Shown here in pieces: positions 15,284 to 40,023 of a stretch of 64,000 bases of DNA. The position numbers were made by a program, and so were the translations under genes. Location of the stretch: assembly GCA_052146895.1 (NCBI GenBank), contig JBKQLZ010000005.1, positions 6,282 through 70,281 of the forward strand, read 5' to 3'. The stretch comes from Acidimicrobiales bacterium. Its GTDB lineage: Bacteria; Actinomycetota; Acidimicrobiia; Acidimicrobiales; Bog-793. Under the pieces are notes generated by a model. The model was not told the origin of the DNA and made no database searches. It saw nothing but the letters and a program-made list of their open reading frames with translations. Each line of letters starts with the position of its first letter. The stretch's first letter is position 1.

Positions 15284-15292
15284 CGGTGGCGC

Positions 15293-21737: not shown

Positions 21738-21743
21738 CCGGCT

Positions 21744-25267: not shown

Positions 25268-25329
25268 TGACTTTCGCCTCTGTTGGCAGAGGACGAAGTG
25301 CGGACAATGGCTGAGAAAGGGAGCGAGCG

Positions 25330-26604
25330 ATGAGTCGATTGAGCGTTCAAGTCACCCGGAGTGGAGCGATCGCAGCGCTCCTCGGTGCGCTCGCCCTCGC
25401 AGGGGCGGCTCCGACGGCCGCAGCTGGCGCCAGGCCAGGGAGCCGGACGGACAGCAGCGCCGCGACGCGGCCGCGGGTGAGCGCCGCGCCGGCTACGGCG
25501 GTCCCAAAGGGCTTCAGGGCCAACTCCATCACATGGATGTCGCCAGAACAGGGCTGGGTGCTCGGCAGCGCTCCCTGCAGCAAGGCAAAGTCACCCGACT
25601 CGGGTCCGCCGCCGGTGAAGTCATGTGCGTACGTCATCGGGACCACCAACGGAGCGAAGTCTTGGAGCCTGCTCAGCTCGATCAACGCGCCGATCGTCAC
25701 GATCGGCCAATCCGGCGAAAAGGGTGTCACCGAGATCCGCTTTGCCACCACCAAGATCGGCTGGGTCTTCGGACCCGAGCTGTTCCGCACCACCAACGGA
25801 GGGAAGTCCTGGACCTCGCTGAAAATCCCGGGAGGTGACAAGCAGGTGACGAGCCTGGCAGCCAACTCCAAGACTGCCTACGCCGTGGTCTCTCCCTGCC
25901 AGTGGGCGACGTCCGGCCCGTGCGGGCAACAGGCGTACAGCTTGTGGCGAACCGCCACGCTGACTGGCAGCGCGTGGAAGCAGATCTCTGTGAACTTGGC
26001 TCCCGCGGCAGGGATGTACAACTCGGGTGCCGACGTCGCCGTCTACGACAAGACCGTCTACGTCCTCAGCTCGACCACAAACAACTTCGGCACAGTAGTT
26101 CAAAGCAAGTTCTACGCCAGCACCGACGGCGTTCACTTCTCCGTCCCGCACGACCCGTGCGATGCCTCGAAGCTACTCTCCCTGTCCCAGGCGGTCCCGA
26201 CGTCGGCGACCGACGTCGCCCTCCTCTGTGAGGGCGAGTCCTCGATGGGAGAGACCTCCAGGTCCGTCTACCGGTCGACGAACGCGGGCAAGACCGATAT
26301 CTCCGCCGGCACGCCGTCCCCGTCGGGCGACTACGCCGAGCTGGCGGCGTCACCGTCGGGCAACCTGGCTGTGTCGTCGTCGTTCGGAGCCTCGTGGATT
26401 TTCATCAACGACACCCACAAGACGAAATGGACCACGGCGGTAGACGAGGGCGACGGTGGCCTCGGATGGAACGACATCGTGTACGTCACCAGCAAAGAGG
26501 CCTGGATCGTTCGCGCGCCAGCCGAGGACATATACGGGCTCGCCCCCGGTCAGGTCTTTGTCACCCACGACGCTGGAGGGCATTGGACGGTCGCCACGTT
26601 GTAA
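25330..26604 (+). CDS. secreted Asp-box/BNR-like repeat protein
   Basis: Signal peptide, then a Pro/Ser/Ala linker. Repeats include TTNGAKSWSL, TTNGGKSWTSL, and THDAGGHWT, with irregular Cys pairs. Confidence 0.7.
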   Translation: MSRLSVQVTRSGAIAALLGALALAGAAPTAAAGARPGSRTDSSAATRPRVSAAPATAVPKGFRANSITWMSPEQGWVLGSAPCSKAKSPDSGPPPVKSCAYVIGTTNGAKSWSLLSSINAPIVTIGQSGEKGVTEIRFATTKIGWVFGPELFRTTNGGKSWTSLKIPGGDKQVTSLAANSKTAYAVVSPCQWATSGPCGQQAYSLWRTATLTGSAWKQISVNLAPAAGMYNSGADVAVYDKTVYVLSSTTNNFGTVVQSKFYASTDGVHFSVPHDPCDASKLLSLSQAVPTSATDVALLCEGESSMGETSRSVYRSTNAGKTDISAGTPSPSGDYAELAASPSGNLAVSSSFGASWIFINDTHKTKWTTAVDEGDGGLGWNDIVYVTSKEAWIVRAPAEDIYGLAPGQVFVTHDAGGHWTVATL

Positions 26605-26641
26605 CCGTTCGTCTCTCAGTGGACCGAGAAGGAGGAAGATC

Positions 26642-28468
26642 ATGGCGACAGTCGCAAAGCAAGTGGACCTAGCGCACTTCGGCAACTCGAGGCGGACCCG
26701 GATGCGCTCCGACGGCAGTGCCACGGCGCCGCGGCAGTTCCGCCTGTTCGCGCTCGCGGTGGCGGTGCCCTTGCTGACGCTGCTTGCCGTTCCCGTCACC
26801 TCTGTCGGCGCGACACGCCCAGCTGCGGCCGGCAGCACCTACTACGCGATCGGTAAGCCGCTGTGCAAGCCGCCAAAGCCGGGATACTTCTCGTGTTACG
26901 CAATACGCCGGGTTGAAGTGAAGAAGGGTACGCCTGGTGCGAAGCCGTTCAAGCTCGCGGCGGGCGCTACCGCGAGCATCGCCACGAGCGGCCGAACGGC
27001 AACGATCGGGCCGGCCGGCGGGCTCACGCCGTACGACCTCGCAAACGCCTACGACTACGACTCGGCTGCGCCGGTGACTGGCCAGACTGTCGCGATCATC
27101 GACGCCTACAACGACCCGAAGATCAACAGCAATCTCCAGACATTCGACACCCACTACGGCCTTATTCCTTGCAGCATCTCGAACGGATGCCTGAAGGTCG
27201 TGAACCAGAGCGGCGGCTCGACTCTGCCCCCGAACGACACGAGCGGGTGGTCCGGCGAGGAGACCCTCGATGTCGAGACCGTCCACTCGGTCTGCGAGAA
27301 CTGCAAGATCATCCTGCTCGAGGTGACCACTCCTTCAATCAGCAACTTCGACGTCGCAGTGAACGAGGCGGCCAAGCTGAAGGCGACGGAGATCAGCAAC
27401 TCCTACGGCGGTGCCGAGAGCTCTTCGACCCCGACCGGAGAGGCGGCTTACAACCATCCCGGCATAGTCATCACCGCCTCCGCCGGGGACGACGGGTACT
27501 ACAGCTTCGACACCGGAGGCGCGAACCAGCCGAACGCACCCGCTTCATTTGCCACTGTGGTAGCGGTCGGAGGCACGTCGCTATACCTCGGCCAAACCGC
27601 TACGCGCCAGTCTGAGTCGGTGTGGAACGACAACGGGCCGCGGGACTTCTGGGGGAAGATCCTGGGTCCGTTGGGCGCGACCGGAGGCGGCTGCAGCACA
27701 CTGATTCCAGCCCCAGGTTGGCAGAGCGGCATGAGTGTCTGGCCGAGTACAGGCTGCGCCACACATCGCCTCGTGGCGGACATCGCAGTCGATGCTGATT
27801 ACCTGACCGGATTCGACATCTATGACACTTACGTCTGCGGCTCCGCCTGCGGCACGCCTGGCTGGTCCACTGTCGGCGGCACCTCGCTCTCCTCGCCGAT
27901 CATCGCCTCCATGTTCGGTCTGGCGGGCGGGGCAGAGGGCGTCGCCTATCCGGCGCTCACGCTCTACGGCCATCTCGGGAGCTCCTCGCTCTACGACGTC
28001 ACGTCCGGCGGGAACGGCTATTGCGACGGCGAGGGCGCGGCTGCATGCGGCGACCCGAACACGGGCGGGGAGATCCTTGACTGCGACTACCCGGCGACCG
28101 GGAGCACGCCGAGCCCTAGCGATCGTGCCTGCGACGCTCTTGCCGGCTACGACGGCCCCACCGGTGTCGGTACGCCGAACGGGCTCGGTGCGTTCGCTAA
28201 GACCGGCCCTACCGCCGCGGTCGGCGGGCCGGCGTCGGTCACAAGCGGAACGACCAACTTCTGGACGGCGACGACGGCCGATCCCTTCCCGGGAGGCACG
28301 GTCACGAGCTACACGTGGAACTGGGGTGACGGCAGCACCCCCACCGTCACGACGACCGACTCGGCCTCACATGACTACCTGACCGGCGGGAGCGACACCA
28401 TCACGCTGACCGTGACGGACAACTACGGCCAGACGGGCGCGGCGACGTACCCCGTGGAGGTGAGCTGA
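26642..28468 (+). CDS. sedolisin (S53) family serine peptidase with pro-domain and C-terminal PKD domain
   Basis: ATG at 26642 preceded by GAAGGAGG, then a signal peptide. Catalytic motifs GEETLDVE, SAGDDGYY, and GGTSLSSPIIASMF. PKD-like tail YTWNWGDGSTP...ITLTVTDNYGQTG. Confidence 0.85.
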   Translation: MATVAKQVDLAHFGNSRRTRMRSDGSATAPRQFRLFALAVAVPLLTLLAVPVTSVGATRPAAAGSTYYAIGKPLCKPPKPGYFSCYAIRRVEVKKGTPGAKPFKLAAGATASIATSGRTATIGPAGGLTPYDLANAYDYDSAAPVTGQTVAIIDAYNDPKINSNLQTFDTHYGLIPCSISNGCLKVVNQSGGSTLPPNDTSGWSGEETLDVETVHSVCENCKIILLEVTTPSISNFDVAVNEAAKLKATEISNSYGGAESSSTPTGEAAYNHPGIVITASAGDDGYYSFDTGGANQPNAPASFATVVAVGGTSLYLGQTATRQSESVWNDNGPRDFWGKILGPLGATGGGCSTLIPAPGWQSGMSVWPSTGCATHRLVADIAVDADYLTGFDIYDTYVCGSACGTPGWSTVGGTSLSSPIIASMFGLAGGAEGVAYPALTLYGHLGSSSLYDVTSGGNGYCDGEGAAACGDPNTGGEILDCDYPATGSTPSPSDRACDALAGYDGPTGVGTPNGLGAFAKTGPTAAVGGPASVTSGTTNFWTATTADPFPGGTVTSYTWNWGDGSTPTVTTTDSASHDYLTGGSDTITLTVTDNYGQTGAATYPVEVS

Positions 28469-28526
28469 CAAAGCGCGCGGCCTGCTTCTTGCCTGACGGC
28501 GACACCGCCGCTGCTAGAACTTCTCG

Positions 28527-29363
28527 ATGCTGCATGCCGTGTTCCCGGGCCTCACGCTCGCGCGCGCGGCGTACGGCTTCGACGTCGGAGGAGCGCCTCC
28601 TGACCACTGCGGTCCCGGCGGCATGGTCTTCGGGCCCGGTGACGACTGGCTCGTCGCTAATAGCGGGACTGGCAGCCTCTTCCGGTTACACGGCAACGAT
28701 GCCCCCGCAACGGAGGTTCTCAACGCGGATAGCGGCGTGTCCGATCTAGCCGTCAGCCCAGACGGCGCCCTCTTTGGCTCTCGGAGGACCGAGATAGTCG
28801 AGCTCGATCCGGCGAACGGTGCCGTCTTGCGGACCGTGGCCAACGGCTTCAGAGAGCTCGTCGGGCTCGTGTTCGACGCGCGGTCAGGCAGGCTCCTCGT
28901 TGCCGACTTCGAAGCATCGGCGATCTACGCGGTCGATCACGTGACCGGTGCCTGCTCTGTGCGTGCCGCGGGAGACTCGCTCGGCAACCCGAACGGGATC
29001 GTGGTCGACGACGACGGGCGCTTGCTCGTCGCCGGGTATGGCAGCAGGCGCGTTCTTGCCGTCGAGGGCGACGGTGGCGTGGTGGATCTCGGGCGATTGC
29101 CTGGCGGTCCGGACGGGGTCGCGCTCGGTGGCGCAGATGGCCCGTTCTCGGGTTCCGCGATCGTCAACCAGCGGGACGGACAGGTCGTCCAGCTTGCACC
29201 AAACGGGCAGCTCACGACGCTCGCGACGGGCGGCACGCCCGGCGATCTGGTCGCCGTGGACACCGAAGGTTACTTGCTAGTAACTCAGCTGAGCGAGATT
29301 TTCCGAATCGGACCACCGTGGTTCGCTCCACAGCCCTGGCGAGTCCTTCCGCCTCCGCCCTAA
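28527..29363 (+). CDS. NHL/SMP-30-like six-bladed beta-propeller protein
   Basis: Repeated hydrophobic-strand-plus-DG pattern (VSDLAVSPDGALF, LVGLVFDARSGRLLVAD, PNGIVVDDDGRLLVAG, PDGVALG). No obvious signal peptide. Confidence 0.6.
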   Translation: MLHAVFPGLTLARAAYGFDVGGAPPDHCGPGGMVFGPGDDWLVANSGTGSLFRLHGNDAPATEVLNADSGVSDLAVSPDGALFGSRRTEIVELDPANGAVLRTVANGFRELVGLVFDARSGRLLVADFEASAIYAVDHVTGACSVRAAGDSLGNPNGIVVDDDGRLLVAGYGSRRVLAVEGDGGVVDLGRLPGGPDGVALGGADGPFSGSAIVNQRDGQVVQLAPNGQLTTLATGGTPGDLVAVDTEGYLLVTQLSEIFRIGPPWFAPQPWRVLPPPP

Positions 29364-29462
29364 AGAATCCGTACAAATTTGCCGATGAACTGCGGGCGAG
29401 GGAATTCCTCCCTCGATCGCGCTTCGGCGCGGGGTAGGTCATAAGACGAGGGGAGGTTCGCT

Positions 29463-32400
29463 GTGCCTGCGTTGCGAGCTTCGGTGTCGCGTTGGTACCT
29501 CCTGTTCATCGCTGTCGTCGGCATGATCTACTTCCCCTTCCTCGAATGGCAAGGACAGGTGGCCGCGTGGGCGGTCATCGGTCTCTCCTCGGTGACCGCG
29601 ATCATCTACGGCACTTATCGCAACCGCCCGAACGTGCCTCGTGCATGGGGCGTGCTTGCAGCAGGCGTGTTCCTGTTCATCACAGGCGACACGATGTACA
29701 AGTTCTCCAACCAGATCCTCCACCACACTCCGCCGTTCCCGTCGATCATCGACGTGATCTACATCACGATGTACCCGACGCTCGCAGTCGGCCTTCTCCT
29801 TCTTGTGCGGGCGCGGGTGCCAGGAGGTGACCGAGCGAGCCTTCTCGACGCGCTCACGGTCACTGCCGGGCTTGCGTTGTTGTCCTGGGTCTTCCTGATC
29901 GTCCCGTACTTCCGGGCTCCAGACCTGTCCATCCTCGAGCGGCTCACGTCGGTCGCGTACCCGCTCGGTGATGTCCTGCTCTTGGCCATGCTCGCCCATC
30001 TCTGGAGTGCCGGCGGCTTGCGCAACGCGGCTGGCCGCTTCCTTGCTATCGGGACCGTCGGCTGCCTCGTCTCTGACAGCCTTTATGGCGCCATACAGCT
30101 GCACGGCACATGGCATGACGGGAACCCAGTCGACTTCGGCTGGATGCTCTTTTACGCATGCTGGGGCGCTGCCGCGCTGCATCCCTCGATGCGTGACCTC
30201 GCCAAGCCAGTCCTTGCCGCGACGCACCGAACGAGTCGCTCCAGGCTCTTCCTGCTCGCGGGTGTGTCCCTGATCGCACCGATCGTGCTCTTGAGCGAGA
30301 CGATGTTCGGGACTCCCGTCGACGCCGCCGTGATCGGTGTGGCGGCTGGCGTGATGTTCCTGCTCGTGCTCACACGAATGGCCGGTCTCGTCAACGTCCA
30401 CCAACAAGCGGTGACGCGCGAGCAGGTGCTCCGGTCCGCGGCCGCAGACCTCGTCGCGGCCTCGGGTCGCGAGGCTCTCTATGAGGCCGTCCTCGCGGAC
30501 GTGGGCGCGCTCGCGTCGGGACAAGGCGAGATCTCAGTCTCGATGGCCGTCGCGCAGGGTACCGGCGCCGACCTCGAGATCGTCGCGAGGTCCGAGAACT
30601 CCGGAGCTGCACAAGAGGTGTTGCCGGCACCCGTGTCGTTGCCCGCCGGGCTGCGAGATCAGTTGCTGACCGGTGACGCCGCCCGTTGCCAGCTCAGCGA
30701 CTTCCCGGAGCTCGGCGGTTCCGAGGACAAGCCATCGCTACTGATCTGCCCGCTCGTGACCGATGACAAGCTGAGCGGGCTGGTCGCGGTCGCAAGCGCC
30801 CGCCAGTGGCCCGTCGACCTTGCGAGAGCAATCGAGACCCTCTCGTCGCAGGTTGCGCTCGCGCTGGAGAGCGAGGCGCTCACAGAGGCCTTCCACGCCG
30901 CTCGCAGCGAAGCACGGTTCCAGGCACTCGTGCAGAACGCGTCGGACGTGATCCTGATCGTTCACCCGGACACCACAATCATCTACCAGACCCCGTCGAC
31001 GAAGCGGATCCTGGGCTACCAGGAGGGCCTCGAAGGCAGCCGGCTCACCGAGCTGTTGCATCCTGATGACGTTCAGCAGGCAATCGCCGTCTGGAACGAC
31101 ACGGCCTATCGCACCGATGCTTCGACGGCCGTGGCCTGGCGACTTCGCCATCAAGACGGATCGTGGCGAGACGTCGAGGTAGTGGCGAACAACCTGCTCG
31201 GCGACGCCGACGTCGAGGGAATCGTTCTCACGATCCGCGACGTGAGCGACCGCAAGCGGCTCGAAGAGGAGTTGAAGCACCAGGCGTTCCACGACTCGCT
31301 CTGCGGACTGGCCAACAGGGCGCTGTTCGGGGACCGGCTCGAGCAGGCGCTCGCGAGAGCAGCTCGCTCGCAAAGGCCCCTTGCGGTGCTCTTCATCGAC
31401 CTCGCCGACTTCAAGATCATCAACGACACTCTCGGGCACTCAGCTGGGGACGAACTCCTCGTGGCCGTTGCGCAACGCCTGACGGAGGCCCTGCGAGCCG
31501 GCGACACGGCGGCGAGGTTCGGAGGCGACGAGTTCGCAGTCCTGCTCGAAGACGTGCGCGACCTCGAGGAAGCCCGTTTCGTCGCTGAGCGGATCATCAG
31601 CTCGTTGCGTCCGACGGTGACAGTCGGGGATCAGCAGGTCAACGTGCAGGCGAGCCTGGGCATCGCCCTCAGCCCAGAGGGCTCGGACAGCCCGTCGGAC
31701 TTGCTGCAAGCGGCGGACGTCGCAATGTACGCGGCGAAGGCACGCGGCAAGGGTTGCTGCGAGGTGTACGAGCCCATGCTGCGAGACGCCATCATCGAAC
31801 GTCTCGAGCGGACGTCGGACTTGCAGCGCGCCCTCGACGCGAGGGAGTTCGAGCTGTACTACCAGCCGATCGTGGACCTGGCGGACAGCCGAATCATCGG
31901 GGTGGAGGCTCTCGCTCGCTGGAACCACCCGGTCCGCGGACTCTGCCTTCCGAAGGACTTCATCGCACTGGCTGAGGACACCGGGCTCATCATCCCCTTC
32001 TCGCGGTGGGTGCTAGAGGAGGCCTGCAAGCAAGCGCGCTCTTGGCACGTCGCGGGCGCACCCGAGCTGACGGTCAGTGTCAACATCTCTGCCCGGCACT
32101 TCCAGCAAGAGGGCATCGTCGACGACGTCGCTCGGGCGATCGAGCTAGCCGGCCTCGATCCCGCGAGCCTGGTGCTCGAGATCACCGAGAGTGCTCTGCT
32201 CCAAGACGCAGGCGCAGTCGTGACTCGCATGATCGACTTGAAGATGCTCGGTGTCCAGTTCGCGATCGACGATTTCGGCACGGGCTACTCATCGCTCAGC
32301 TATCTGCAGCGGTTCCCGATCGACATCCTCAAGGTTGACAAGTCCTTCGTCGACGGGGTCGGCGACTCGGTCGAGGAGGGCGCGCTAGCAGACGCGATCG

Positions 32401-32645
32401 TCCAGCTCGGAAGGACGCTCCACCTGCAGACGATTGCCGAGGGCATCGAGCAGCCGCGACAGGTCGCCGGGCTGCGCGCGATGGCTTGCCACTACGGGCA
32501 GGGCTTCTTCTTCGAGCGACCCGGCACTGCCCAGGCGATCGGTGAGCTGATCGCGCGTCAGCATGCGCTGGTCCTGCCGGATGGGTCCACATCGAACGGG
32601 GTGGCCCTCAATGGTCACCTCCATGCGACTGGGGTACAAAGATGA
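29463..32645 (+). CDS. polytopic membrane sensor with PAS, GGDEF (I-site intact) and EAL domains
   Basis: About 9-10 N-terminal TM helices, then a PAS region. RAGDTAARFGGDEFAVLL carries RxxD five residues before GGDEF. EAL motifs are all present (EALARW, DDFGTGYSSLSYL, KVDKSF, EGIE, QGFF). Confidence 0.9.
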   Translation: MPALRASVSRWYLLFIAVVGMIYFPFLEWQGQVAAWAVIGLSSVTAIIYGTYRNRPNVPRAWGVLAAGVFLFITGDTMYKFSNQILHHTPPFPSIIDVIYITMYPTLAVGLLLLVRARVPGGDRASLLDALTVTAGLALLSWVFLIVPYFRAPDLSILERLTSVAYPLGDVLLLAMLAHLWSAGGLRNAAGRFLAIGTVGCLVSDSLYGAIQLHGTWHDGNPVDFGWMLFYACWGAAALHPSMRDLAKPVLAATHRTSRSRLFLLAGVSLIAPIVLLSETMFGTPVDAAVIGVAAGVMFLLVLTRMAGLVNVHQQAVTREQVLRSAAADLVAASGREALYEAVLADVGALASGQGEISVSMAVAQGTGADLEIVARSENSGAAQEVLPAPVSLPAGLRDQLLTGDAARCQLSDFPELGGSEDKPSLLICPLVTDDKLSGLVAVASARQWPVDLARAIETLSSQVALALESEALTEAFHAARSEARFQALVQNASDVILIVHPDTTIIYQTPSTKRILGYQEGLEGSRLTELLHPDDVQQAIAVWNDTAYRTDASTAVAWRLRHQDGSWRDVEVVANNLLGDADVEGIVLTIRDVSDRKRLEEELKHQAFHDSLCGLANRALFGDRLEQALARAARSQRPLAVLFIDLADFKIINDTLGHSAGDELLVAVAQRLTEALRAGDTAARFGGDEFAVLLEDVRDLEEARFVAERIISSLRPTVTVGDQQVNVQASLGIALSPEGSDSPSDLLQAADVAMYAAKARGKGCCEVYEPMLRDAIIERLERTSDLQRALDAREFELYYQPIVDLADSRIIGVEALARWNHPVRGLCLPKDFIALAEDTGLIIPFSRWVLEEACKQARSWHVAGAPELTVSVNISARHFQQEGIVDDVARAIELAGLDPASLVLEITESALLQDAGAVVTRMIDLKMLGVQFAIDDFGTGYSSLSYLQRFPIDILKVDKSFVDGVGDSVEEGALADAIVQLGRTLHLQTIAEGIEQPRQVAGLRAMACHYGQGFFFERPGTAQAIGELIARQHALVLPDGSTSNGVALNGHLHATGVQR

Positions 32646-33904
32646 CGTCGACGTTCCCGCAAGTCTCCTCCGAACGAGTGCGGGTCGACGAGCGCTGGGC
32701 GGACCTCGAGCGTCTACGTTCCTCCCACCCGATGATGGATGCCGTCATCGACGAGGTGCGTGTGCGGCAGATTCGGGTCGGCGACAAGTGGCTCACTGAC
32801 TTCGCTTCCTGTAACTACCTGGGCTTTGACTGGCATCCGAAGATAATTGCCTCAGTTCAGTCTGCGCTCCAGCAGTGGGGTACCCATCCCAGCTGGTCGC
32901 GCCTGCTCGGCAGTCCTCGCCTCTACGTCGACATCGAGGAGCACATGACCGAGTTGCTCGGGGCGCCCGACACCTTGCTGCTCCCGACGATCACCCACAT
33001 CCACTCCTCGGTCATTCCCGTCCTTGCGGGCCAAGGAGCCGTCCTTCTCGACGCGCAGGCGCACAAGACGATGTGGGACGGATGCGCCCACGCCCGCGCC
33101 AACGGTGCGACTCTGCGCCGCTTCCGCTCGAACGACTCGGACTACCTCGCAGACATGCTCAGGTCGCTCCCTGCCGGGCTGTCCCGACTTGTGTGCATGG
33201 ACGGCGTCAACTCCATGACCGGCAACGCGCCGAATCTCGTCGAGTTCGCACGGGTGTGTCGCGAGAACGATGCCCTCTTGTACATCGACGACGCTCACGG
33301 GTTCGGCGTCATCGGCGAGTCTCCTTCGAAAGAGGTGCCCTACGGTCACCGCGGGAACTCAATCGTTCGTCACTTTGACGAGTCGTACGACAACATCGTT
33401 CTCGTCGCCGGCTTCTCCAAGTCGTACTCCTCGCTCCTCGCGTTCCTGGCACTACCGACGAAACTCAAGAACTTCCTCAAAGTCGCTGCGCCCCCCTACC
33501 TGTATTCGGGTCCGTCGCCGACCGCCTCGCTCGCGACCGTGCTTGCCGGCCTCGAGGTCAACGAGGAGGAAGGTGAGGACATCCGGCGATCGCTGTACCT
33601 CAAGACGACGCGGGTGCTCGACCACATCGATACCCTCGGCATTCGCACGCCCAACACCTCGAAGTTGCCGATCATCGAGCTTCCACTGGCGAACAGCGAG
33701 GACATCGACGCCGTGGGCGAGTTCCTGTTCAAGAATGGCATCTACGTCACCTTGGCGGCCTACCCCTTGGTGCCGAGAGAACAAGTCGGCTTCAGGGTGC
33801 AGATCACCGCTGCCAACACCGATGAGGAGATCGACCACTTGAACGAGGTCCTCTCGGCCCTCGCGCAACGATTCGATATGCAGCCTGGCCGCCACGCGGC
33901 GTGA
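32642..33904 (+). CDS. alpha-oxoamine synthase family PLP enzyme (BioF/Kbl/Spt/CqsA superfamily)
   Basis: SCNYLGF, DDAHGFG, and the GFSKSYSS PLP-lysine motif. ATGA overlap with the upstream GGDEF-EAL gene. Confidence 0.85.
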   Translation: MTSTFPQVSSERVRVDERWADLERLRSSHPMMDAVIDEVRVRQIRVGDKWLTDFASCNYLGFDWHPKIIASVQSALQQWGTHPSWSRLLGSPRLYVDIEEHMTELLGAPDTLLLPTITHIHSSVIPVLAGQGAVLLDAQAHKTMWDGCAHARANGATLRRFRSNDSDYLADMLRSLPAGLSRLVCMDGVNSMTGNAPNLVEFARVCRENDALLYIDDAHGFGVIGESPSKEVPYGHRGNSIVRHFDESYDNIVLVAGFSKSYSSLLAFLALPTKLKNFLKVAAPPYLYSGPSPTASLATVLAGLEVNEEEGEDIRRSLYLKTTRVLDHIDTLGIRTPNTSKLPIIELPLANSEDIDAVGEFLFKNGIYVTLAAYPLVPREQVGFRVQITAANTDEEIDHLNEVLSALAQRFDMQPGRHAA

Positions 33905-35202
33905 GCAGGAGCCCGGCAGCATTGGGACTCACGACACCGTTCAAACGGCGGGAGTTCCGACTGCTCTGGATGGGCCTTGCGGTATCTCTCCTCGGAGACG
34001 GGGTCTTCCTTGTTGCCGTCGCTTGGCAGGTCTATGCGATCGCTGACCGACCCTCCGCCCTCGCCTACGTCGGGATCGCAATGTCGCTCCCACAGGTCGC
34101 CATGCTGCTCGTCGGTGGAGCTGTCTCCGACCGTATGGATCGTCGGACGATACTGCTGTTGTCCGATGTGACGCGCGGGCTTGCGCTCGCATGTCTCGCC
34201 GGAGTCACGGTGGCGGGCGACGTCCATCTCTGGGAGCTCTATGTCGCCGCGGCGCTCATCGGGGTAGCTGCGGCGTTCGCATCGCCAGCACTCGACGCGC
34301 TCGTACCGCAGCTCGTTCCCTCACATGAGCTCACTCAGGCCAACTCCGTGGACCAGTTCATGCGCCCGTTCGCCCTTCAGCTCGCGGGCCCGGCGCTCGG
34401 GGGGGTTGCCGTGGTCCTCCTGCACCCGGGCGGCGCCTTCGGGTTCGACGCGCTCACGTTCGCTTTCTCGGGTTGGTGTGTGTGGCGCCTCGCCCCGATC
34501 GCGTCGGAGCCCCCAGAAGTGCAGACGACGCTCCGGAGCGATGTGCGCGAGGGACTCGCTTACGTTCGTCGCCACGTCTGGCTGTGGGGCACGTTCGTGT
34601 CCGCGACGATCACGTACCTTCTCTTCATAGGGCCGACGCAGGTGCTGCTGCCCTATCTCGTCCGGAACTCGCTACACGCCGGCGCCACGACCTATGGGGC
34701 AGTGCTGGCAGTGGGAGGCCTAGGCGCGCTCATCGGCGCCTTCTTCGTCGCGAGGCGCCCCGACGTGCGGCGACCGATCACCTGGATGTACGTCTGGTGG
34801 ACGGTGGCGACGTTGGCCGTCGCCGGTTACGGCATCGCCACCCACGCGTGGGGTCTGGCGTGCGCGGCCTTCGTGATCAACGGTGCCGAAGCGGTCGGGA
34901 CTGTCGTGTGGGCCACGCTCAAGCAACGCCGGGTCGCGAACTCGATGCTCGGGCGCGTGTCGAGCATCGATTGGTGCGTCTCGACCGCCCTGCTCCCGCT
35001 CAGCTACGCGTTGACCCCGCCGCTCGTTCATCTCCTCGGAGTGCGAATGACGCTCGTGCTCGCCGGCACGATCGGCTCGGTGACCACCATCGCGTTCCTC
35101 TTCCTCCCGGGGATGCGAGACGCCGATCGCCAGGGCGACCCGCTGCGCGAGATGGACCCCAGCACAGAGACGCCGGTGCGCACAGAAGCACCCTCACGCT
35201 GA
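33901..35202 (+). CDS. MFS transporter
   Basis: About 12 TM helices with the GGAVSDRMDRR loop motif. GTGA overlap with the upstream gene. Confidence 0.85.
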   Translation: MSRSPAALGLTTPFKRREFRLLWMGLAVSLLGDGVFLVAVAWQVYAIADRPSALAYVGIAMSLPQVAMLLVGGAVSDRMDRRTILLLSDVTRGLALACLAGVTVAGDVHLWELYVAAALIGVAAAFASPALDALVPQLVPSHELTQANSVDQFMRPFALQLAGPALGGVAVVLLHPGGAFGFDALTFAFSGWCVWRLAPIASEPPEVQTTLRSDVREGLAYVRRHVWLWGTFVSATITYLLFIGPTQVLLPYLVRNSLHAGATTYGAVLAVGGLGALIGAFFVARRPDVRRPITWMYVWWTVATLAVAGYGIATHAWGLACAAFVINGAEAVGTVVWATLKQRRVANSMLGRVSSIDWCVSTALLPLSYALTPPLVHLLGVRMTLVLAGTIGSVTTIAFLFLPGMRDADRQGDPLREMDPSTETPVRTEAPSR

Positions 35203-35245
35203 ACCCTCAGGCGGGGGAGGTGTAACTACGCTGGCGGCAAGTTAC

Positions 35246-36841
35246 GTGACTCGGCGACGAGAGGTGCGGCCCATGGCCCAAGGACGTGAGGACAGGAGCC
35301 GCCGGCGGCTCACAGCCAGCTGTGTAGGTGCGGCTCTCGCCGTCGCCGCCGCAGGTTGCTCGACCGCTTCGGCGGCGGGCGCTCCGGCGACGACCAGTCC
35401 GGCGGCGACGACGCCCTCCTCCACGTCGCCGCCTCCGCCCACAGTCCGCACCAAAGCGGCGGCGCCATCGCTCGGCGCGCTCACGACGTACGGGTACGGC
35501 AACTCCCGGTCAGGAAGGGACAAGGTCGACCCGGCGATCGCCAAACTCTCGTCCGCGCCCAAGTGGAACGACTCCCTCGACGGTGCCGTCTACGGCCAGC
35601 CGCTCGTCTACAACGCAACGGTGTACGTCGGCACCGAGAACGACACGATCTATGCAATCAAGGCGACGACGGGAAAGGTCCTCTGGCACGTCCACGTCGG
35701 GACCGCCGTCAGCACGTCAGTGGTCGACACCGCCCCGACCCTGGGTGGGAGCTGCGGTGACATCGACCCGCTCGGCATCACAGGGACGCCCGTCATCGAC
35801 AAGGGAGCCAGCGAGATCTTCGCCGCCGAGGAGACCGAGGTCGGCGGCAACAAGTGGCAGGACATCAAGCACGAGCTCGTCGCCGTGTCGCTCAGCACTC
35901 ACAAGGAGCTCTGGAACCGGCAGATCGACCCGCCGCATGCAAACCACTCGAACTACTACTACATCGCTGCCGAGCAGCAGCGCCCGGCCCTCACCCTCCT
36001 CGGTGGGCGGATCTACGCCGAGTACGGCGGCCTCGACGGAGACTGCGGCCAGTACCACGGCTACGTCGTGGGCCTGCCGGAGTCGGGTAAGGGAACGCTC
36101 CTCAGCTACCAGGTTCCCACTCAGCGCGAAGGGGGCATCTGGGGTACGAGCGGGGCCTTCGTCGCGCCGAACGGGAACCTGTACGTCGCCACCGGCAACG
36201 GGAGCTCGAACACGAAGTACGACGAAGGCAACTCGGTCGTCGAGTTGTCTCCGGAGCTGAAGCGACTCGGCTACTGGGCACCGAAGAACTGGGTGCAGCT
36301 GAACGAGGACGACTGGGATCTCGGTTCGGCCGGTCCCGTTGCGGTACCGGGCACGTCGTTGTTGTTCGCGGCCGGGAAGCCCGCGTCGTCTGGCAGCTTC
36401 GGCGACCTCATGAAGGACTCACCTCTCGGCGGCGTCGGCAAGGGCGCGTTCACGGGAGACCTCTGCGGCGGAGGCAGCGGAGCATTCGGTGCTGACGCGG
36501 CAGACGTGATCGGATCCGGTGCCACCAAGCGCACCTACGTGTACGCGCCGTGCGGGAGCGGCACCGAGGCAGTCGAGATCGACATCGCCAAGATGACGTT
36601 CAAGCAGGCTTGGTCGCCCTCGACCGGCTCTCCGAACGGTCCGCCCATCGTCGCTGGCGGGCTGGTCTGGGCCCTCGACTGGAACGCCGGAGCGCTCTAT
36701 GGAATGAAGCCCACGACCGGCAAGGTCGTCATCGAGCGCCCGACCGACGGCCTCGAGCATTTCGTCACGCCGGCCGTCGGCGACGCGATGCTCTTCGTAC
36801 CCACCCAAAGCGGCGTGGAGGCGTGGACCACAACGAAATGA
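35246..36841 (+). CDS. PQQ-like beta-propeller repeat lipoprotein
   Basis: SRRRL...AVAAAGC lipobox, then a Pro/Thr/Ser linker. Includes YGQPLVYNATVYVGTENDTIYAIKATTGKVLWH-type repeats. The start may be the ATG at 35273. Confidence 0.75.
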   Translation: MTRRREVRPMAQGREDRSRRRLTASCVGAALAVAAAGCSTASAAGAPATTSPAATTPSSTSPPPPTVRTKAAAPSLGALTTYGYGNSRSGRDKVDPAIAKLSSAPKWNDSLDGAVYGQPLVYNATVYVGTENDTIYAIKATTGKVLWHVHVGTAVSTSVVDTAPTLGGSCGDIDPLGITGTPVIDKGASEIFAAEETEVGGNKWQDIKHELVAVSLSTHKELWNRQIDPPHANHSNYYYIAAEQQRPALTLLGGRIYAEYGGLDGDCGQYHGYVVGLPESGKGTLLSYQVPTQREGGIWGTSGAFVAPNGNLYVATGNGSSNTKYDEGNSVVELSPELKRLGYWAPKNWVQLNEDDWDLGSAGPVAVPGTSLLFAAGKPASSGSFGDLMKDSPLGGVGKGAFTGDLCGGGSGAFGADAADVIGSGATKRTYVYAPCGSGTEAVEIDIAKMTFKQAWSPSTGSPNGPPIVAGGLVWALDWNAGALYGMKPTTGKVVIERPTDGLEHFVTPAVGDAMLFVPTQSGVEAWTTTK

Positions 36842-36873
36842 GCGGGGCCACGATACTGGGCACCGCCGCTACC

Positions 36874-36894
36874 GTATATCAAGTCAGGATATAC
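36874..36894. promoter_or_regulatory. inverted repeat upstream of vapB, candidate autoregulatory operator
   Basis: GTATATC-aagtcag-GATATAC, a perfect inverted repeat. A flanking direct repeat ATACTGGG occurs at 36853-36860 and 36892-36899. The site is a locally AT-rich patch. Confidence 0.4.
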
Positions 36895-36928
36895 TGGGGT
36901 ATTGCAGAGCAGTGTTTGGAGGAGGGTC

Positions 36929-37141
36929 GTGTCCAAGACGCTTATCGACATCGACGAGGGTCTGCTCGAGCGAGCACGAGCACTTCTCGGCCCGAAGACC
37001 ACCAAGAAGGACGCCGTGAACACCGCCCTCTCGAAGTTGGTGCGCCTGCACGACCAGCGGGAGACCGTCGACTGGATCATCGCGACGGATCCGGTCGCTG
37101 ACCTTCGTGATCCAGAGGTCCGTGCAGCCGCACGCAGGTGA
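36929..37141 (+). CDS. vapB: VapB-family antitoxin
   Basis: GTG at 36929 preceded by GGAGGAGG. VSKTLIDIDEGLLERARALLG is typical of type II antitoxins of this class. Confidence 0.75.
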   Translation: MSKTLIDIDEGLLERARALLGPKTTKKDAVNTALSKLVRLHDQRETVDWIIATDPVADLRDPEVRAAARR

Positions 37142-37563
37142 GCCGTTATCTCGTTGACAACAGCGTCCTCCAGCGCCTGCCCCGTAGTGTCGAGGTACAG
37201 AGCGCCGTCGCCGCGATCCTCCATGCCGAGCACGAATTGTGTTGCTGCGCCCTTACTCTCGACGAGTTCGCGTTCAGCGCTCGGTCCGCAGCAGAACACG
37301 CTACCGGTCTGCAACGCCTGAGGACCTCGTGGCTCTATCTGCCCGCTTCGCCCGAGACCGACCAGATCATCATCGACATCCGGACCGCACTCTGGCGCGC
37401 CGGTAAGGGCCGCGCTGCTGGAGTGATCGATGTCGCCATCGCCGCAAGCGCTGTCCAGTCCACCGCAACTGTTCTTCACTACGACACTGACTTCGAGCAC
37501 ATCATCGGCGTATATCCCCAGCTGACGGCCGAGTGGGTGGTGCCCCGGGGTTCCATCGACTGA
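37138..37563 (+). CDS. vapC: PIN-domain toxin VapC
   Basis: GTGA overlap with vapB. YLVDNSVL first acidic motif and later IDVAIAASA and YDTDFEHI. Confidence 0.85.
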   Translation: MSRYLVDNSVLQRLPRSVEVQSAVAAILHAEHELCCCALTLDEFAFSARSAAEHATGLQRLRTSWLYLPASPETDQIIIDIRTALWRAGKGRAAGVIDVAIAASAVQSTATVLHYDTDFEHIIGVYPQLTAEWVVPRGSID

Positions 37564-37606
37564 ACGGCTAGGTGGGCGTGCACCACCAACCGTCAGGGCC
37601 CCAGAG

Positions 37607-38482
37607 TCAAGTCACAGCGATCAGCCCCGCGAGCCCGCCACGGATCGCGCGCTCGCCACGGGCGTTGCGAACTTCGAATCTCGCGAGTACCGAGCCGGGC
37701 TCGCTCTCTTGCAGTTGCCCGACCTGCACCGTGATCTCGGACGGCACGACCACCATCGCCGCGAACTCGGCGTCCACCGCGGCCATCCGACGGTGCGGCC
37801 CGGCCATCTCCATGACCAGGCTCACGGCGATCGCGAGCGAGGCCGTGCCGTGGAGAATCGGACCGGGCAGCCCAGCGCTCCTAGCGACGACCGGATCGGT
37901 GTGGATCGGGTTCCAGATGCGGGCGCACTCGGTGTAGACGATGGCTGTCGTCGGCTCAATCGGCACTCTGAGCTCACGGAGAACGTCGAGCTCGACAGGT
38001 TTGCCCTGGGGTGAGCTTGGTGAGCTTCCCTCCGCCGCGTCGCTGGTCACCCCCAGGAACACCACGCCCATCTTCGTCGTGGCTACCGGTCGCCGCACGC
38101 CGTCAAGTGTCTCGAGCTCGATCACCAGCCTGGCCCCGGCGCGCCCTTCCGTGACCGAGGCCACCCTGGCTGAAGTAGTGAGCACATCGCCCGGTCGGAT
38201 CGGCTGGTGAAGCCGCAGCGAATGTGTGGAGTGGACCCCGCGCATCGCCTCGTCGGGAGACAGCCCCGCTGACATTGCGATGCGGCTCACCTCTTGCACT
38301 AACGGCCACTCGAGGCACACCGGGAAGATGGGATGGGCCCGTATGCCCCCGGGACACTCACCGTCGACATACTGAAGGCCGTGATCTCCTATGCCGGCGG
38401 CGTACGCAGCGATCCACCGCTGGTCGATCTCGTGCGTGATCGACGGTGTCACCGCTCCTTCGAGCGACTTGCTCAGCGCCAC
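37607..38482 (-). CDS. MaoC-like double hot-dog (R)-hydratase/dehydratase
   Basis: 291 aa with two hot-dog halves. The C-terminal half carries NPIHTDPVVARSAGLPGPILHG. Confidence 0.8.
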   Translation of the reverse strand: MALSKSLEGAVTPSITHEIDQRWIAAYAAGIGDHGLQYVDGECPGGIRAHPIFPVCLEWPLVQEVSRIAMSAGLSPDEAMRGVHSTHSLRLHQPIRPGDVLTTSARVASVTEGRAGARLVIELETLDGVRRPVATTKMGVVFLGVTSDAAEGSSPSSPQGKPVELDVLRELRVPIEPTTAIVYTECARIWNPIHTDPVVARSAGLPGPILHGTASLAIAVSLVMEMAGPHRRMAAVDAEFAAMVVVPSEITVQVGQLQESEPGSVLARFEVRNARGERAIRGGLAGLIAVT

Positions 38483-38613
38483 GTCGCCCCGAACCCGGAT
38501 CTAGCAAAGAGCAGGAAGTCATCATCCGGCACAATGCCAAACTAGTGACCTGAGTCAGAGATCCGCTGGCAGTATCCAGCGAGTGACTCCAGCTCGACGA
38601 GCTCTTCGATCGC

Positions 38614-40023
38614 GTGGGCTCTCGCCGGCGTTCGGCAGGTCTCGGAGACGCGGTGTTCACCATGGTGGCGAACCGGCTCGTCGATCCCTCCTCCAAGCGT
38701 CGCTGTGTCACCGACTGGCTCGGTGCCGACGCCGCAGTTCCCGACGGCCGAAGCGCCCCGTCGCTCGACCGTCTCTATCGCGCCCTTGACGCCGTGGCCG
38801 AGGCGAAGGACGAGATCGAACAGCACTGCTTCACCGAGCTGTGCACTCTGGCAAACCTCGATCTCCGGCTTGTCTGTTACGACCTCACCTCGAGCTACTT
38901 CGAGGGCGACGTGAAGCCCTCCGTGCGCTTTCCCTCGAAGGCCTTCGGCTACAGCCGCGATCACCGGGACGACCGACCCCAGATCGTGATCGGCCTGCTC
39001 GTCACCTCTGACGGCATCCCGATCGCCCATCACGTCTTCTCGGGCAACACCGCCGACCGGTCGACACTGCCGGCTCTGATGGCCGACCTACAGGCACGCT
39101 TCGGGGTCGGGCGGATCGCCCTTGTGGCTGACCGTGGTCTCGTCTCCGAGGAGAACTTGAAACAGGTCGAGGCGAACGGCTTTGACCACGTGCTCGCGAC
39201 ACGGCTCCATCGCGACCCGGCGGTGGCTGGCGTGCTGGAGGCCGTCGCGAGGAACGACGCCGTGTTCGTCCCGGTCGGAGACGACGGGACGAAAGCGACA
39301 GAGGTCACCCACGAGGGACGGCGCTATGTCGTCGTCGACTCGCCTGCTCGCCATGTTCGCGACGATCGGAGGCGAACTGAGCTCCTCGCACGGACCGAAG
39401 ACCGCCTGATCGCACTTGCCGACCGGGTGAGATCTGGTCGACTCGCCGACCCGGCCAAGATCGGTGCCGCATCAGACCGCATCTTGAGGGACTCAGGCGT
39501 CGGCCGGTGCTTTACGACCAAGATCGCCCATGGGATCTTCACCTGGGAGTACGACGAAGAGCACATGGACTACGAGGAGCGCCTCCTCTCGGGCCGGTAT
39601 GTGATCACGACCTCGCTCGACAAGAAGTCTGCTTCGACCGCCCAGGTCGTCTCGCACTACAAGAGCCTCCAATCGGTCGAGCGGCGCTTTCGGGTCCTGA
39701 AGGACTTCCTCGCGCTGCGACCGGTCTTCCACTACACCGAAAAGCGCGTGCGCGGTCACGTCGCGATCTGCGTACTCGCCGCTGTGATCGAGTCGGTCAT
39801 CTCCCTCGACCTCGCACGAGCACGGATCGGCGACCCGGACCTAGACGGCCAACAGCTCACGGCGCGCCGCGCACTTCGCGGGCTCGAGCGCGTCCGCATC
39901 ATCAGCTTTGTCGACACCAACGGCGACAAGCGCCAGGTCGTCACGAGACCTAACCCCTTCCAGGCCAAGATCCTCGCCGCCATCGGCGTCGACATCTCCG
40001 CCTGGCGCTCACGCGTCGCCTGA
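38614..40023 (+). mobile_element. IS1634-family DDE transposase gene, 5'-truncated remnant
   Basis: AVFTMVANRLVDPSSKRRCVTDW, YDLTSSYFEGD, LVADRGLVSEENL, and FRVLKDFLALRPVFHYTEKRVRGHVAICVLA. An in-frame stop lies 10 codons upstream. Only about 130 nt remain before the neighbouring gene, so roughly 100 N-terminal codons are missing. Confidence 0.8.

Follow-up and report, generated by a model that had tools for sequence, protein, structure and literature searches.

A cassette of three tightly coupled genes in the window (the whole 64,000-nucleotide stretch of Acidimicrobiales DNA analysed, from a soil actinobacterium), encoding a membrane sensor with c-di-GMP output domains, an alpha-oxoamine synthase (AOS) and a putative MFS exporter, is kept in uncultured Actinomycetota by the hundred and has the look of a putative small-molecule signalling system not described before (Table 1). 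The reading that we hold with about even confidence is that of a cognate synthase/receptor pair, similar to CqsA/CqsS but assembled from other components and with a direct link to c-di-GMP.

Table 1. Positions of the cassette, its domains and the adjoining gene in the window.
Feature	Position	Strand	Description
Shine-Dalgarno GGGGAGG	29450..29456	+	6 nt 5' of sensor GTG start; read from sequence
Sensor gene	29463..32645	+	1060 aa, GTG start; 10-TM, GAF-like, PAS, GGDEF with I-site, EAL
N-terminal 10-helix membrane domain	29463..30449	+	aa 1-329; proposed ligand receptor
PAS domain	30915..31244	+	aa 485-594; Pfam PAS_3/PAS, TIGR00229 at 61 bits
GGDEF diguanylate cyclase domain	31284..31751	+	aa 608-763, Pfam 163 bits; RxxD I-site aa 678-681, GGDEF aa 687-691
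EAL phosphodiesterase domain	31818..32522	+	aa 786-1020, Pfam 258 bits; canonical catalytic motifs all present
AOS gene	32642..33904	+	420 aa, stand-alone alpha-oxoamine synthase, PLP-dependent acyltransferase, uncharacterised clade
MFS gene	33901..35202	+	433 aa, MFS_3 / DHA3-like putative exporter
Propeller lipoprotein gene	35246..36841	+	531 aa, PQQ_2/BamB-like; outside conserved unit

Re-reading of the sequence together with a Pfam search recovered the open reading frames, the domains and the intact GGDEF, I-site and EAL motifs claimed in the original prediction, and also the two overlaps it had described, ATGA between the sensor stop and the AOS start (32642-32645) and GTGA between the AOS stop and the MFS start (33901-33904). 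The sensor/AOS overlap of 4 nt recurs in approximately 29 of the 36 Acidimicrobiales loci and is therefore not due to chance, and its retention implies co-translation. The MFS start is uncertain: it may be the GTG at 33901 or an in-frame TTG at 33922 preceded by AGGAG at 33906-33910. The alignment of the MFS orthologues begins only at residue 8-13, and the gap between AOS and MFS in orthologous loci is usually 13-28 nt; the linkage of the two genes appears tight with either start. The 99-nt intergenic region carrying the sensor Shine-Dalgarno (29364-29462) is likely the 5' end of the operon. No convincing sigma-70 site or terminator was found inside the unit, the six terminator-like sites seen (3.7 +/- 1.6 expected) all lying within coding sequence.

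A survey of 185,579 species-representative genomes gave only 238 relatives, and all the carriers are uncultured, being MAGs or metagenome contigs. The gene order is sensor, AOS, MFS in the Acidimicrobiales and AOS, sensor, MFS in the Thermoleophilia, with variable and unrelated flanks. In 80 loci anchored on the AOS, the membrane sensor adjoined it in 70 and was fused to it in three, six were cut by a contig end, and one was a true exception; an MFS orthologue followed the cassette in 63. The proposal that the three genes function together as one unit was borne out by the retention of the trio in two actinobacterial classes and in two orders, by the kept overlap and by a natural sensor-GGDEF-EAL-AOS fusion. 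The conservation of the neighbourhood did not extend to the fourth gene, whose product had been suggested as a possible partner. The propeller gene (PQQ_2, Pfam 53.8 bits; plausible lipobox VAAAGC) has no homologue in any of the 80 loci, and synteny with a 92%-identical relative breaks at 35179, about the MFS stop codon and before the propeller gene, which lies in a strain-specific region also carrying an IS1634 transposase (38614-40023). On both counts the propeller lipoprotein falls outside the unit.

The I-site of the sensor, RAGD, lies five residues ahead of GGDEF (aa 678-691 span), and the translated EAL domain includes EAL (815-817), N874, EITES (906-910), DDFGTGYSS (936-944), KVDKSF, AEGIE and GQGF. 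The GGDEF, I-site and EAL motifs are kept across approximately 60 sensor orthologues, among which RxxDTAARFGGDEF is invariant. The stretch before the PAS domain (aa ~330-470) is poorly conserved in the conservation profile, and its assignment to GAF, at 21.2 bits, falls short of the 22.4 bits that Pfam requires. The membrane domain was modelled with AlphaFold2 as 10 helices (pLDDT 90.9, pTM 0.87), with an N-in/C-in topology according to the positive-inside rule, and D97, Y100, D129, W142, D170, D205, D224, W227 and H240 are invariant in the orthologue alignment. Its architecture suggests a ligand-binding role; a PDB fold search with the model gave no match at E<0.001, and hence no fold match to known receptors.

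The same membrane domain is also fused to HisKA_3 kinases, in proteins of ~540 aa of which it is the sole sensor domain. In the metagenome scan, an AOS orthologue (at least 50% identity) was present within 3.5 kb in 21 of the 24 informative loci with sensors of the GGDEF-EAL type and in 17 of the 22 of the kinase type. The AOS beside one kinase-type sensor is 60% identical to that of the window. The AOS partner was missing from the remaining three and five loci, respectively, and one further locus (L029) also lacked a partner. The AOS of the kinase-type loci follows downstream of the kinase and of a response regulator with a single REC domain (116 aa) and no DNA-binding domain, and a dedicated exporter was found in none of 33. 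Three independent Solirubrobacteraceae MAGs carry fusion reading frames (1213-1236 aa) joining a divergent membrane domain, GGDEF, EAL and AOS in one polypeptide, followed by an MFS gene with a 4-nt overlap; their membrane domain was recognised by hhalign (97.3%, E 2.6e-11). The pairing of the AOS with the membrane domain is thus independent of the output module. The original prediction rightly saw a c-di-GMP enzyme in the sensor and overlooked that the part tracking the AOS is the N-terminal 10-TM domain. This domain co-travels with the AOS whatever the output, and is therefore likely a receptor. In four further loci, a sensor with the membrane domain, GGDEF and EAL is divergent from an MbtH-A-PCP-reductase NRPS, which is predicted to make an alpha-amino-aldehyde. 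Both partner enzymes of the membrane sensor, the AOS and the A-PCP-R NRPS, are thus predicted to give alpha-amino-carbonyl products.

The AOS (Aminotran_1_2, 89.5 Pfam bits) retains H141, D217, H219, K260 and R386, catalytic residues kept in 121 family members, and its identity between classes is unusually high (58-75%). Its closest relatives, at 35-43% identity and 260-340 bits, are AOS domains that terminate AMP-binding-PP-AOS and KS-AT-DH-ACP-AOS proteins; they act on carrier-bound acyl chains, and we take them to be of the PigH/RedN/RedL and SxtA type. The motifs G[TV]HPSW[ST]R, P-T-I-T-x-x-H, AH[KR][ST] and TAAN are shared with these domains and separate both from BioF, Kbl and SPT. The AOS consequently belongs with the chain-releasing domains of megasynthases (FAAL-ACP, PKS), and to none of the clades among which its placement had been proposed (BioF, Kbl, Spt, CqsA and LqsA), nor to ALAS. 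The implied kinship with CqsA/LqsA did not hold: the NCBIfam model for these enzymes has a cut-off of 428 bits and gave 90.6, and the match to CqsA structures reached only 40 bits. The best matches among solved structures were serine palmitoyltransferases (131 bits); an assignment as SPT was rejected, the scores being 168, 167 and 132 bits against family cut-offs of 640, 500 and 670. Unlike the megasynthase domains, the AOS of the window stands alone in a signalling operon and not in a biosynthetic gene cluster, and neither Pfam nor the flanks of the loci revealed a carrier protein, adenylation domain or PKS module fused to it or neighbouring it. The transporter (MFS_3 / MFS_1 in Pfam) is distant to Tet(V) and EntS in NCBIfam and weakly matches the LplT-type MFS domain of acyl-ACP-phospholipid acyltransferases.

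In the synthase/receptor reading, the AOS would join an amino acid to the acyl group, fatty or other, of a CoA or ACP thioester and so form a lipophilic alpha-amino-ketone. This compound, or an amino-alcohol, hydroxyketone or dihydropyrazine/pyrazine derived from it spontaneously or enzymatically, would be the signal, taken out of the cytoplasm by the MFS pump and bound in the membrane or its outer leaflet by the 10-helix domain of the neighbouring protein, where several invariant aspartates within the membrane would make fitting partners for a protonated amine. Relayed through the GAF-like/PAS linker, the signal would tip the GGDEF cyclase against the EAL phosphodiesterase, and its amount would thereby set the cellular c-di-GMP level; elsewhere in the Actinomycetota this receptor domain would instead drive the HisKA_3 kinase and the single-domain response regulator. 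The linkage of the trio, the pairing seen from both sides, the fusion, the overlap, the intact AOS and GGDEF/EAL motifs, the NRPS variant and the precedents of CqsA/CqsS, LqsA/LqsS and Bacteroides appear to support this reading. Against it stand the loci without a partner, the membrane domain that resembles no known receptor in fold, and the exporter that is not universal, being absent from the kinase-type loci. The high AOS identity would be expected of a conserved metabolic or lipid role at least as much as of a diversifying signal, and the fusion may just as well reflect regulation of the enzyme by the sensor or by c-di-GMP.

The latter possibility leads to a reversed flow of information, which we consider unlikely though worth weighing: the sensor would perceive another cue (envelope or membrane state, redox, an external compound) and control both the production and the export of the AOS product by c-di-GMP, direct protein contact or phosphotransfer, the product (an antibiotic, surfactant, siderophore-like or matrix-modifying compound) being the output and not the ligand. 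Allosteric control of the enzyme is compatible with the fusion in three MAGs and with the stoichiometric co-expression given by the kept overlap, and the MFS_3/DHA3 relatives EntS and Tet(V) export secondary metabolites and drugs. The AOS of the kinase-type loci is placed like a regulated target, but simple transcriptional control is not obvious with a lone REC domain, and the AOS of the window shares the transcript of the sensor ahead of it, without a separate regulated promoter. Such a flow also leaves unexplained why the A-PCP-R NRPS, another enzyme forming alpha-amino-carbonyls, pairs with the same membrane domain. Also improbable, in our judgement, is a housekeeping feedback loop of membrane aminolipid homeostasis instead of cell-cell signalling, in which the AOS would make a structural long-chain base or amino-lipid (sphingoid-like), the MFS protein flip it to the outer leaflet and the membrane domain monitor its level in the bilayer. 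The structural matches to serine palmitoyltransferases point this way, but the SPT family scores are far under their cut-offs; the closest relatives use fatty-acyl carriers, but the conserved neighbours of the cassette include no ceramide synthase, reductase, ACP or acyl ligase. LplT-type MFS proteins flip lysolipids and the sensor is entirely membrane-embedded, yet the kinase-type loci have no flippase, and the strong conservation of the AOS between classes is set against a distribution that is patchy for a core lipid.

The view that a biotin or threonine role was unsupported was upheld. [quoted passage not shown] None of the NCBIfam scores comes near its cut-off: bioF reaches 181.6 bits against 426, the Kbl models reach 137 and 130 bits against 460 and 493, and identity to the Escherichia coli enzymes is 28% (BioF) and 26% (Kbl), the signature motifs SGFxxN and NHAS being replaced. 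No homologues of BioA, BioB or BioD were found across 167 loci (2.3 Mb), tdh-like matches were sporadic and none consistently adjacent, and the linkage to the sensor is kept between classes, also as a fusion. By these comparisons the BioF/Kbl assignment appears effectively refuted.

Among known membrane domains, MASE5 is likewise polytopic, N-terminal and fused to GGDEF/EAL or kinase outputs. Its similarity to the membrane domain of the window is weak but recurrent (four of seven members, best E 8.8e-4), and below the Pfam gathering threshold (17.1 vs 25.2 bits); to our knowledge, MASE5 has no known ligand or partner synthase.

CqsA/CqsS and LqsA/LqsS are adjacent pairs of an AOS-family synthase and a transmembrane receptor (PMC3376566), in which the product of the synthase (amino-ketone converted to hydroxyketone) is the ligand of the receptor (PMC3376566, PMC3285556), and CqsS is able to control a nucleotide cyclase directly (PMC4821796). 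In Vibrio and Legionella, as here, the PLP enzyme adjoins a protein sensing by a polytopic transmembrane domain only, and lqsA-lqsR-lqsS includes an adjacent response regulator, as does the kinase-type variant. The differences are that the AOS of the window belongs to another clade, the receptor has 10 helices instead of six and is unrelated in sequence, and the output is either GGDEF-EAL, acting on c-di-GMP directly, or a HisKA_3 kinase instead of a hybrid HisKA kinase acting on LuxU/LuxO; furthermore, there is a dedicated MFS exporter, and the hosts are Gram-positive Actinomycetota. In the Lgs/TetR system of Bacteroides fragilis, a released molecule made by an AOS derepresses the TetR-controlled GA3 T6SS (bioRxiv 10.1101/2025.08.20.671311). 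There too a stand-alone AOS of unspecified substrate lies beside a presumed sensor, but the sensor is a cytoplasmic TetR in another phylum, without membrane receptor, c-di-GMP enzyme or exporter. The Streptomyces proteins CdgF and CdgC are described as 10TM-PAS-PAC-GGDEF-EAL, CdgF being predicted bifunctional and the input signals being unknown (PMC6205966). Compared by description only, they share the overall architecture of the window sensor (10 TM, PAS, GGDEF, EAL), although the EAL domain of CdgC is degenerate, unlike here. Proteins of Streptomyces and Kitasatospora are 44-47% identical to the membrane domain of the window, and the Streptomycetales-type homologues of the sensor adjoin the A-PCP-R NRPS and not an AOS.

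The synthase gene and the sensor's membrane domain were found to travel together, and this co-occurrence is the key finding of the analysis. Scanning one genome per species across 185,579 species gave 238 relatives of the alpha-oxoamine synthase (AOS), and the best 80 of these were studied as AOS-anchored loci. The N-terminal membrane (TM) domain of the sensor was present in 70 of the 80; contig ends cut six loci, three had the domain fused to the AOS, and L029 was a true exception. In L029 (1–10000), an Actinomycetota MAG and the sole clear exception among these loci, the order was AOS>MFS, with 10 kb upstream lacking a recognisable sensor. An orthologue of the MFS transporter was found in 63 of the 80 loci. 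The gene order was sensor>AOS>MFS in the Acidimicrobiales (L001–L033) and mostly AOS>sensor>MFS in the Thermoleophilia/Solirubrobacterales (L034–L080). The 4-nt overlap of sensor and AOS was kept in approximately 29 of 36 Acidimicrobiales loci, and the AOS>sensor junction of the Thermoleophilia mostly measured -4, -1 or a few bases. Because the three genes are kept together in two classes with permuted order, the neighbourhood proposed in the original prediction holds for the sensor, AOS and MFS, and gives strong evidence for their functional coupling. Clustering of all ORFs detected no other family common to more than a handful of the 80 loci, so the flanks of the cassette are unrelated, and no conserved ACP, acyl ligase, reductase or ceramide genes near the AOS. 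The close AOS homologues were all from metagenomes or MAGs, with no cultured carrier among the search results.

The association was recovered also from the side of the sensor. An alignment-based scan detected at least 581 TM-domain relatives in metagenome contigs, of which 80 loci were fetched, and an AOS orthologue was counted at ≥50% identity within 3.5 kb. Sensors of the GGDEF-EAL type had an AOS in 21 of 24 informative loci and an MFS gene in 18 of the 32 loci of the type. A homology search with the TM domain only showed that it also forms, at 44–51% identity, the N-terminal two-thirds of HisKA_3/HATPase kinases of ca. 540 aa, which have no other sensory domain. These kinase-type sensors had an AOS orthologue in 17 of the 22 loci with enough flanking DNA, in gene orders including HK>RR>AOS, HK>AOS and AOS>HK, and no MFS gene beside them (0/33 loci). 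In L082 the kinase is followed by a single-domain response regulator and a 420-aa aminotransferase 60% identical to the AOS of the window. The regulator (L082 6696–7046) and its equivalents in L088–L107 are stand-alone receivers of 116 aa; because no DNA-binding domain is attached, the kinase variant is unlikely to act by straightforward control of transcription. An SDR gene upstream of some kinase-type loci was rejected as a partner, its presence reflecting local synteny inside one sub-clade only.

In three independent assemblies of Solirubrobacteraceae MAGs (L059, L062 and L067) the sensor and the AOS form one ORF. Pfam identified GGDEF, EAL and Aminotran_1_2 in it, a diverged version of the TM domain makes up its first 330 residues (hhalign 97.3%, E 2.6e-11), and an MFS_1 gene lies 3' of the fusion with a 4-nt overlap. 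In these ORFs the sensor, the c-di-GMP enzymes and the AOS are truly joined in one chain, as a Rosetta-stone fusion. L062 also has a divergent GGDEF-HD-GYP(HD_5) gene upstream (2920–4575, −). Another candidate fusion from the representative library, P0241 (1500 aa), was considered doubtful because its Arg/Gly/Pro-rich linker is what would be expected from out-of-frame read-through of the 4-nt overlap; the argument from fusion is based on L059, L062 and L067.

A different enzyme partner was present in Kitasatospora sp. NPDC093558 (L084) and three soil MAGs (L085–L087). Here GGDEF and EAL come after the TM domain, frameshift-split in these assemblies, and the sensor is divergent from a single-module NRPS of the composition MbtH-A-PCP-reductase; a Leu/Phe-tRNA-protein-transferase-family gene and an enoyl-CoA hydratase also adjoin it. 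A-PCP-R enzymes produce alpha-amino-aldehydes and AOS enzymes alpha-amino-ketones, and both kinds of compound readily form dihydropyrazines and pyrazines, a known class of bacterial signals. It is suggestive that both partners of the TM domain would thus yield alpha-amino-carbonyl compounds, and the NRPS may serve this receptor family as a second source of signal.

Coordinates of the features in the window and of the variant loci
Feature	Location	Strand	Details
Sensor	29463-32645	+	1060 aa; GTG start; PAS, GGDEF (163 bits), EAL (258 bits) by Pfam
AOS	32642-33904	+	420 aa; Aminotran_1_2, 89.5 bits (Pfam)
MFS transporter	33901-35202	+	MFS_3/MFS_1 (Pfam)
Propeller lipoprotein	35246-36841		PQQ_2/BamB-like, plausible lipobox
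MaoC/HadAB-like dehydratase	37607-38482	-	
IS1634-family transposase	38614-40023		344 bits vs 100-bit cut-off
tRNA-Gly(TCC)	14571-14644		
Sensor-AOS fusion ORFs	L059 7580-11290; L062 4834-8493; L067 7676-11317		1213-1236 aa, one ORF each
NRPS-type loci	L084 1-1589; L085 4388-7690; L086 4286-7457; L087 3377-7661		

Reading of the ORFs confirmed all four genes where the original prediction had placed them. The ATGA shared by the sensor stop and the AOS start was present as claimed, and so was the GTGA shared by the AOS stop and the MFS start, even though an in-frame TTG at 33922, after AGGAG, is an equally good start for the MFS gene; in the orthologues the AOS-to-MFS gap is usually 13–28 nt. 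The GTG of the sensor has a GGGGAGG Shine-Dalgarno sequence six bases upstream. The sensor motifs said to be intact were all seen in the translation and are conserved in approximately 60 aligned orthologues: the I-site RxxD lies five residues N-terminal of an intact GGDEF, and the EAL domain has the complete canonical set (EAL, N, EITES, DDFGTGYSS, KxD, EGIE, QG). By these active-site motifs the sensor is a predicted bifunctional GGDEF-EAL protein of c-di-GMP turnover. The region preceding the PAS domain gave only a GAF match below the Pfam threshold. The MFS transporter scored 117 bits with Pfam MFS_3 (gathering 27), 228.9 against a cut-off of 319.6 in the test for the DHA3 type (TIGR00900), 253 against 640 for Tet(V) and 140 against 324 for EntS. 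The Rfam scan found no riboswitches in the window, the sole match being the tRNA-Gly, and promoter and terminator scans of the region were uninformative.

The Aminotran_1_2 match and the catalytic residues H141, D217, H219, K260 (the lysine of FSK(260)S) and R386, kept in 121 of the 121 members examined, identify the AOS as an AOS-fold PLP enzyme with a catalytic lysine. Against the curated NCBIfam models every score was far under the cut-off. This applied to BioF (TIGR00858, 181.6 vs 426.45 bits; 28% identity to E. coli BioF), Kbl (NF005394 and TIGR01822, 137 and 130 vs 460 and 493 bits; 26% identity to E. coli Kbl), bacterial SPT (168.5, 166.9 and 131.7 vs 640, 500 and 670 bits, with no sphingolipid genes conserved nearby) and ALAS (103 vs 339 bits). 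The best solved-structure matches were SPT and the Thermus AOS (ca. 130 bits), followed by E. coli BioF and Kbl (ca. 100) and CqsA (40). The kinship with CqsA/LqsA that had been raised at the outset was not borne out (PRK07179, 90.6 vs 428 bits; CqsA structures 2wk7 and 3hqt, 40 bits, E 2e-9). No homologues of BioA, BioB or BioD were detected by tblastn (E ≤ 1e-6) in the window and 167 related loci (2.3 Mb), and Tdh-like matches occurred in only eight loci, at ≤33% identity and in scattered positions, as sporadic generic zinc-ADH. The context thus does not support a biotin or threonine role, as originally argued, and the BioF/Kbl reading is effectively excluded. Members of the family (P0001–P0120, P0391–P0510) are publicly labelled '8-amino-7-oxononanoate synthase' or '7-keto-8-aminopelargonate synthetase-like', which is probably a systematic mis-annotation, since the curated BioF score is less than half of the cut-off and there are no bio genes nearby.

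When 1.84 billion cluster representatives were searched exhaustively with HMMER, those of the AOS family itself appeared at 60–65% identity. The next tier, at 35–43% identity and 260–340 bits, consisted of C-terminal domains of proteins of ca. 1090 aa and larger, which by Pfam are AMP-binding-PP-binding-AOS and KS-AT-DH-PP-binding-AOS; such domains release the chain in assembly lines of the fatty-acyl-AMP-ligase/ACP or the PKS kind. The AOS family and the megasynthase AOS share the motifs G[TV]HPSW[ST]R, P-T-I-T-x-x-H, AHK[TS], DGVxSMxG and TAAN, in place of those of BioF, Kbl and SPT. The nearest stand-alone relatives likewise all scored below every curated cut-off. By curated HMM cut-offs, PDB scores, the representative search and motif comparison the AOS appears closest to the megasynthase-type, carrier-protein-dependent chain-releasing clade, though it stands alone without a carrier protein, and no PP-binding or AMP-binding gene is fused to it or kept near it. 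It would be a competent enzyme condensing an amino acid with an acyl thioester, and because of its megasynthase-type relatives the acyl substrate is probably a fatty or otherwise extended chain.

Residues 1–330 of the sensor matched no Pfam family; MASE5 (PF17178) gave 17.1 against 25.2 bits (E 0.005), and sub-threshold MASE5 matches were obtained for four of seven members of the TM-domain family (best E 8.8e-4). The AlphaFold2 model from a 35-sequence alignment has ten transmembrane helices (pLDDT 90.9, pTM 0.87), and Foldseek found no PDB fold match with E<0.001. The positive-inside rule and predicted helix limits place both ends in the cytoplasm. Among the invariant residues are five aspartates located within helices 4–8 or at their ends (D97, D129, D170, D205 and D224), together with Y100, W142, W227 and H240.

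The closest relative of the window (G+C 63–69%) was L001, an uncultured Acidimicrobiaceae MAG with an AOS 92% identical. Nucleotide synteny with it extends from 28510 to 35179 and then ends, near the MFS stop. The propeller lipoprotein, originally suggested as an extracytoplasmic partner, is not part of the unit, as none of the 80 related loci has a homologue. Given where the synteny ends, it belongs together with the MaoC dehydratase and the IS1634 transposase to a strain-specific segment (35203–40023), which also includes a possible ORF (36697–37500, −); the IS1634-family insertion sequence may have caused the break. The MFS gene of L001 (11262–12542) is alignable from residue 135 only, with nucleotide identity continuing, and the shortening probably reflects a frameshift in the long-read assembly of this MAG, not a genuinely truncated gene; the frameshift-split sensor genes of L085–L087 are similar cases. 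Upstream, approximately 14 kb following the tRNA-Gly (14645–28500) are not in L001, where the distance from the tRNA to the NHL-repeat gene is ca. 1.5 kb. Genes for large proteins with BNR/Ycf48-like and PKD domains (23255–25267, 25330–26604, 26456–28468) lie in this additional DNA, which resembles a genomic island associated with the tRNA and carrying secreted or surface proteins.

The simplest model covering all the architectures is a cognate pair of synthase and receptor. The AOS product or its derivative would enter the membrane by partition, or be pumped across, and be bound by the 10-TM domain, from which the signal would pass to the output module: in the window the antagonistic GGDEF and EAL activities setting the c-di-GMP level, elsewhere the kinase. 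Gene linkage, the fusion, intact domains and the clade of the AOS are observed, while the product, its export and binding, and the direction in which information flows are predictions of the model. Information may also flow in the opposite direction, with the sensor controlling the AOS enzyme; the sensor-AOS fusion and the gene overlap agree with this, but a response regulator lacking a DNA-binding domain fits it poorly, and so does co-transcription. Alternatively, the AOS may make a structural amino-lipid whose level is controlled by feedback; this would explain the high conservation of the AOS and its SPT-like structural matches, but not so well why the distribution is patchy and further lipid genes are absent. 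Extending the synthase/receptor model, an undescribed Actinomycetota-wide form of cell-cell signalling can be envisaged, in which the autoinducer, an alpha-amino-ketone or a compound of pyrazine type, comes from a megasynthase-derived stand-alone AOS and is sensed by a new 10-TM receptor family that changes c-di-GMP or triggers phosphotransfer; we put this forward tentatively, as a somewhat improbable reading.

In the Gram-positive Actinomycetota, the known cases of small-molecule signalling mostly involve gamma-butyrolactones and related furans or butenolides, with cytoplasmic TetR receptors. The cassette is a concrete candidate for a synthase/receptor pair tying a self-made metabolite directly to c-di-GMP; it can be put to direct test and has so far gone unannotated. 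Its distribution is wide, with hundreds of soil lineages that are abundant but uncultured among the carriers (Acidimicrobiia, Thermoleophilia and others), and its natural variants, with kinase output, full fusion or NRPS partner, are ready-made experimental controls. Two uncharacterised families were defined, the AOS clade mislabelled BioF and the 10-TM sensor domain without a structural relative. The inputs of many membrane-bound c-di-GMP enzymes are largely not known (PMC6205966). If the Actinomycetota-wide reading is true, the receptor family, NRPS-paired in Streptomycetales, would also show what class of ligand is bound by membrane diguanylate cyclases of the CdgF/CdgC type, which time Streptomyces development.

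CqsA/CqsS and LqsA/LqsS are adjoining pairs of an AOS-family synthase and a TM receptor (PMC3376566), and a nucleotide cyclase fused to the membrane receptor CqsS can come under its direct control (PMC4821796). In Bacteroides, a released molecule made by an AOS controls a TetR regulator (bioRxiv 10.1101/2025.08.20.671311). The cassette resembles CqsA/CqsS in that the AOS gene adjoins a sensor with a polytopic TM domain (70/80, 21/24 and 17/22 loci in the AOS-anchored, GGDEF-EAL-type and kinase-type sets). However, CqsS and LqsS are 6-TM histidine kinases, whereas the cassette sensor has ten TM helices in the model and a GGDEF-EAL output, with HisKA_3 in its relatives. In its proposed mode of action the cassette parallels CqsA/CqsS, yet it falls outside that family, differing in both synthase clade and receptor type. 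The sensor shares the 10TM-PAS-GGDEF-EAL plan of Streptomyces CdgF/CdgC, whose input signals are not known (PMC6205966), a likeness by published architecture; its TM domain scored under the gathering threshold of MASE5 (PF17178). In the literature surveyed, of incomplete coverage, no description was found of any actinomycetotal pairing between an AOS and a sensor, be it of the GGDEF-EAL or the kinase type. We rate the cassette as new in its parts and in its direct c-di-GMP output, while AOS-based synthase/receptor signalling as a kind is already known.
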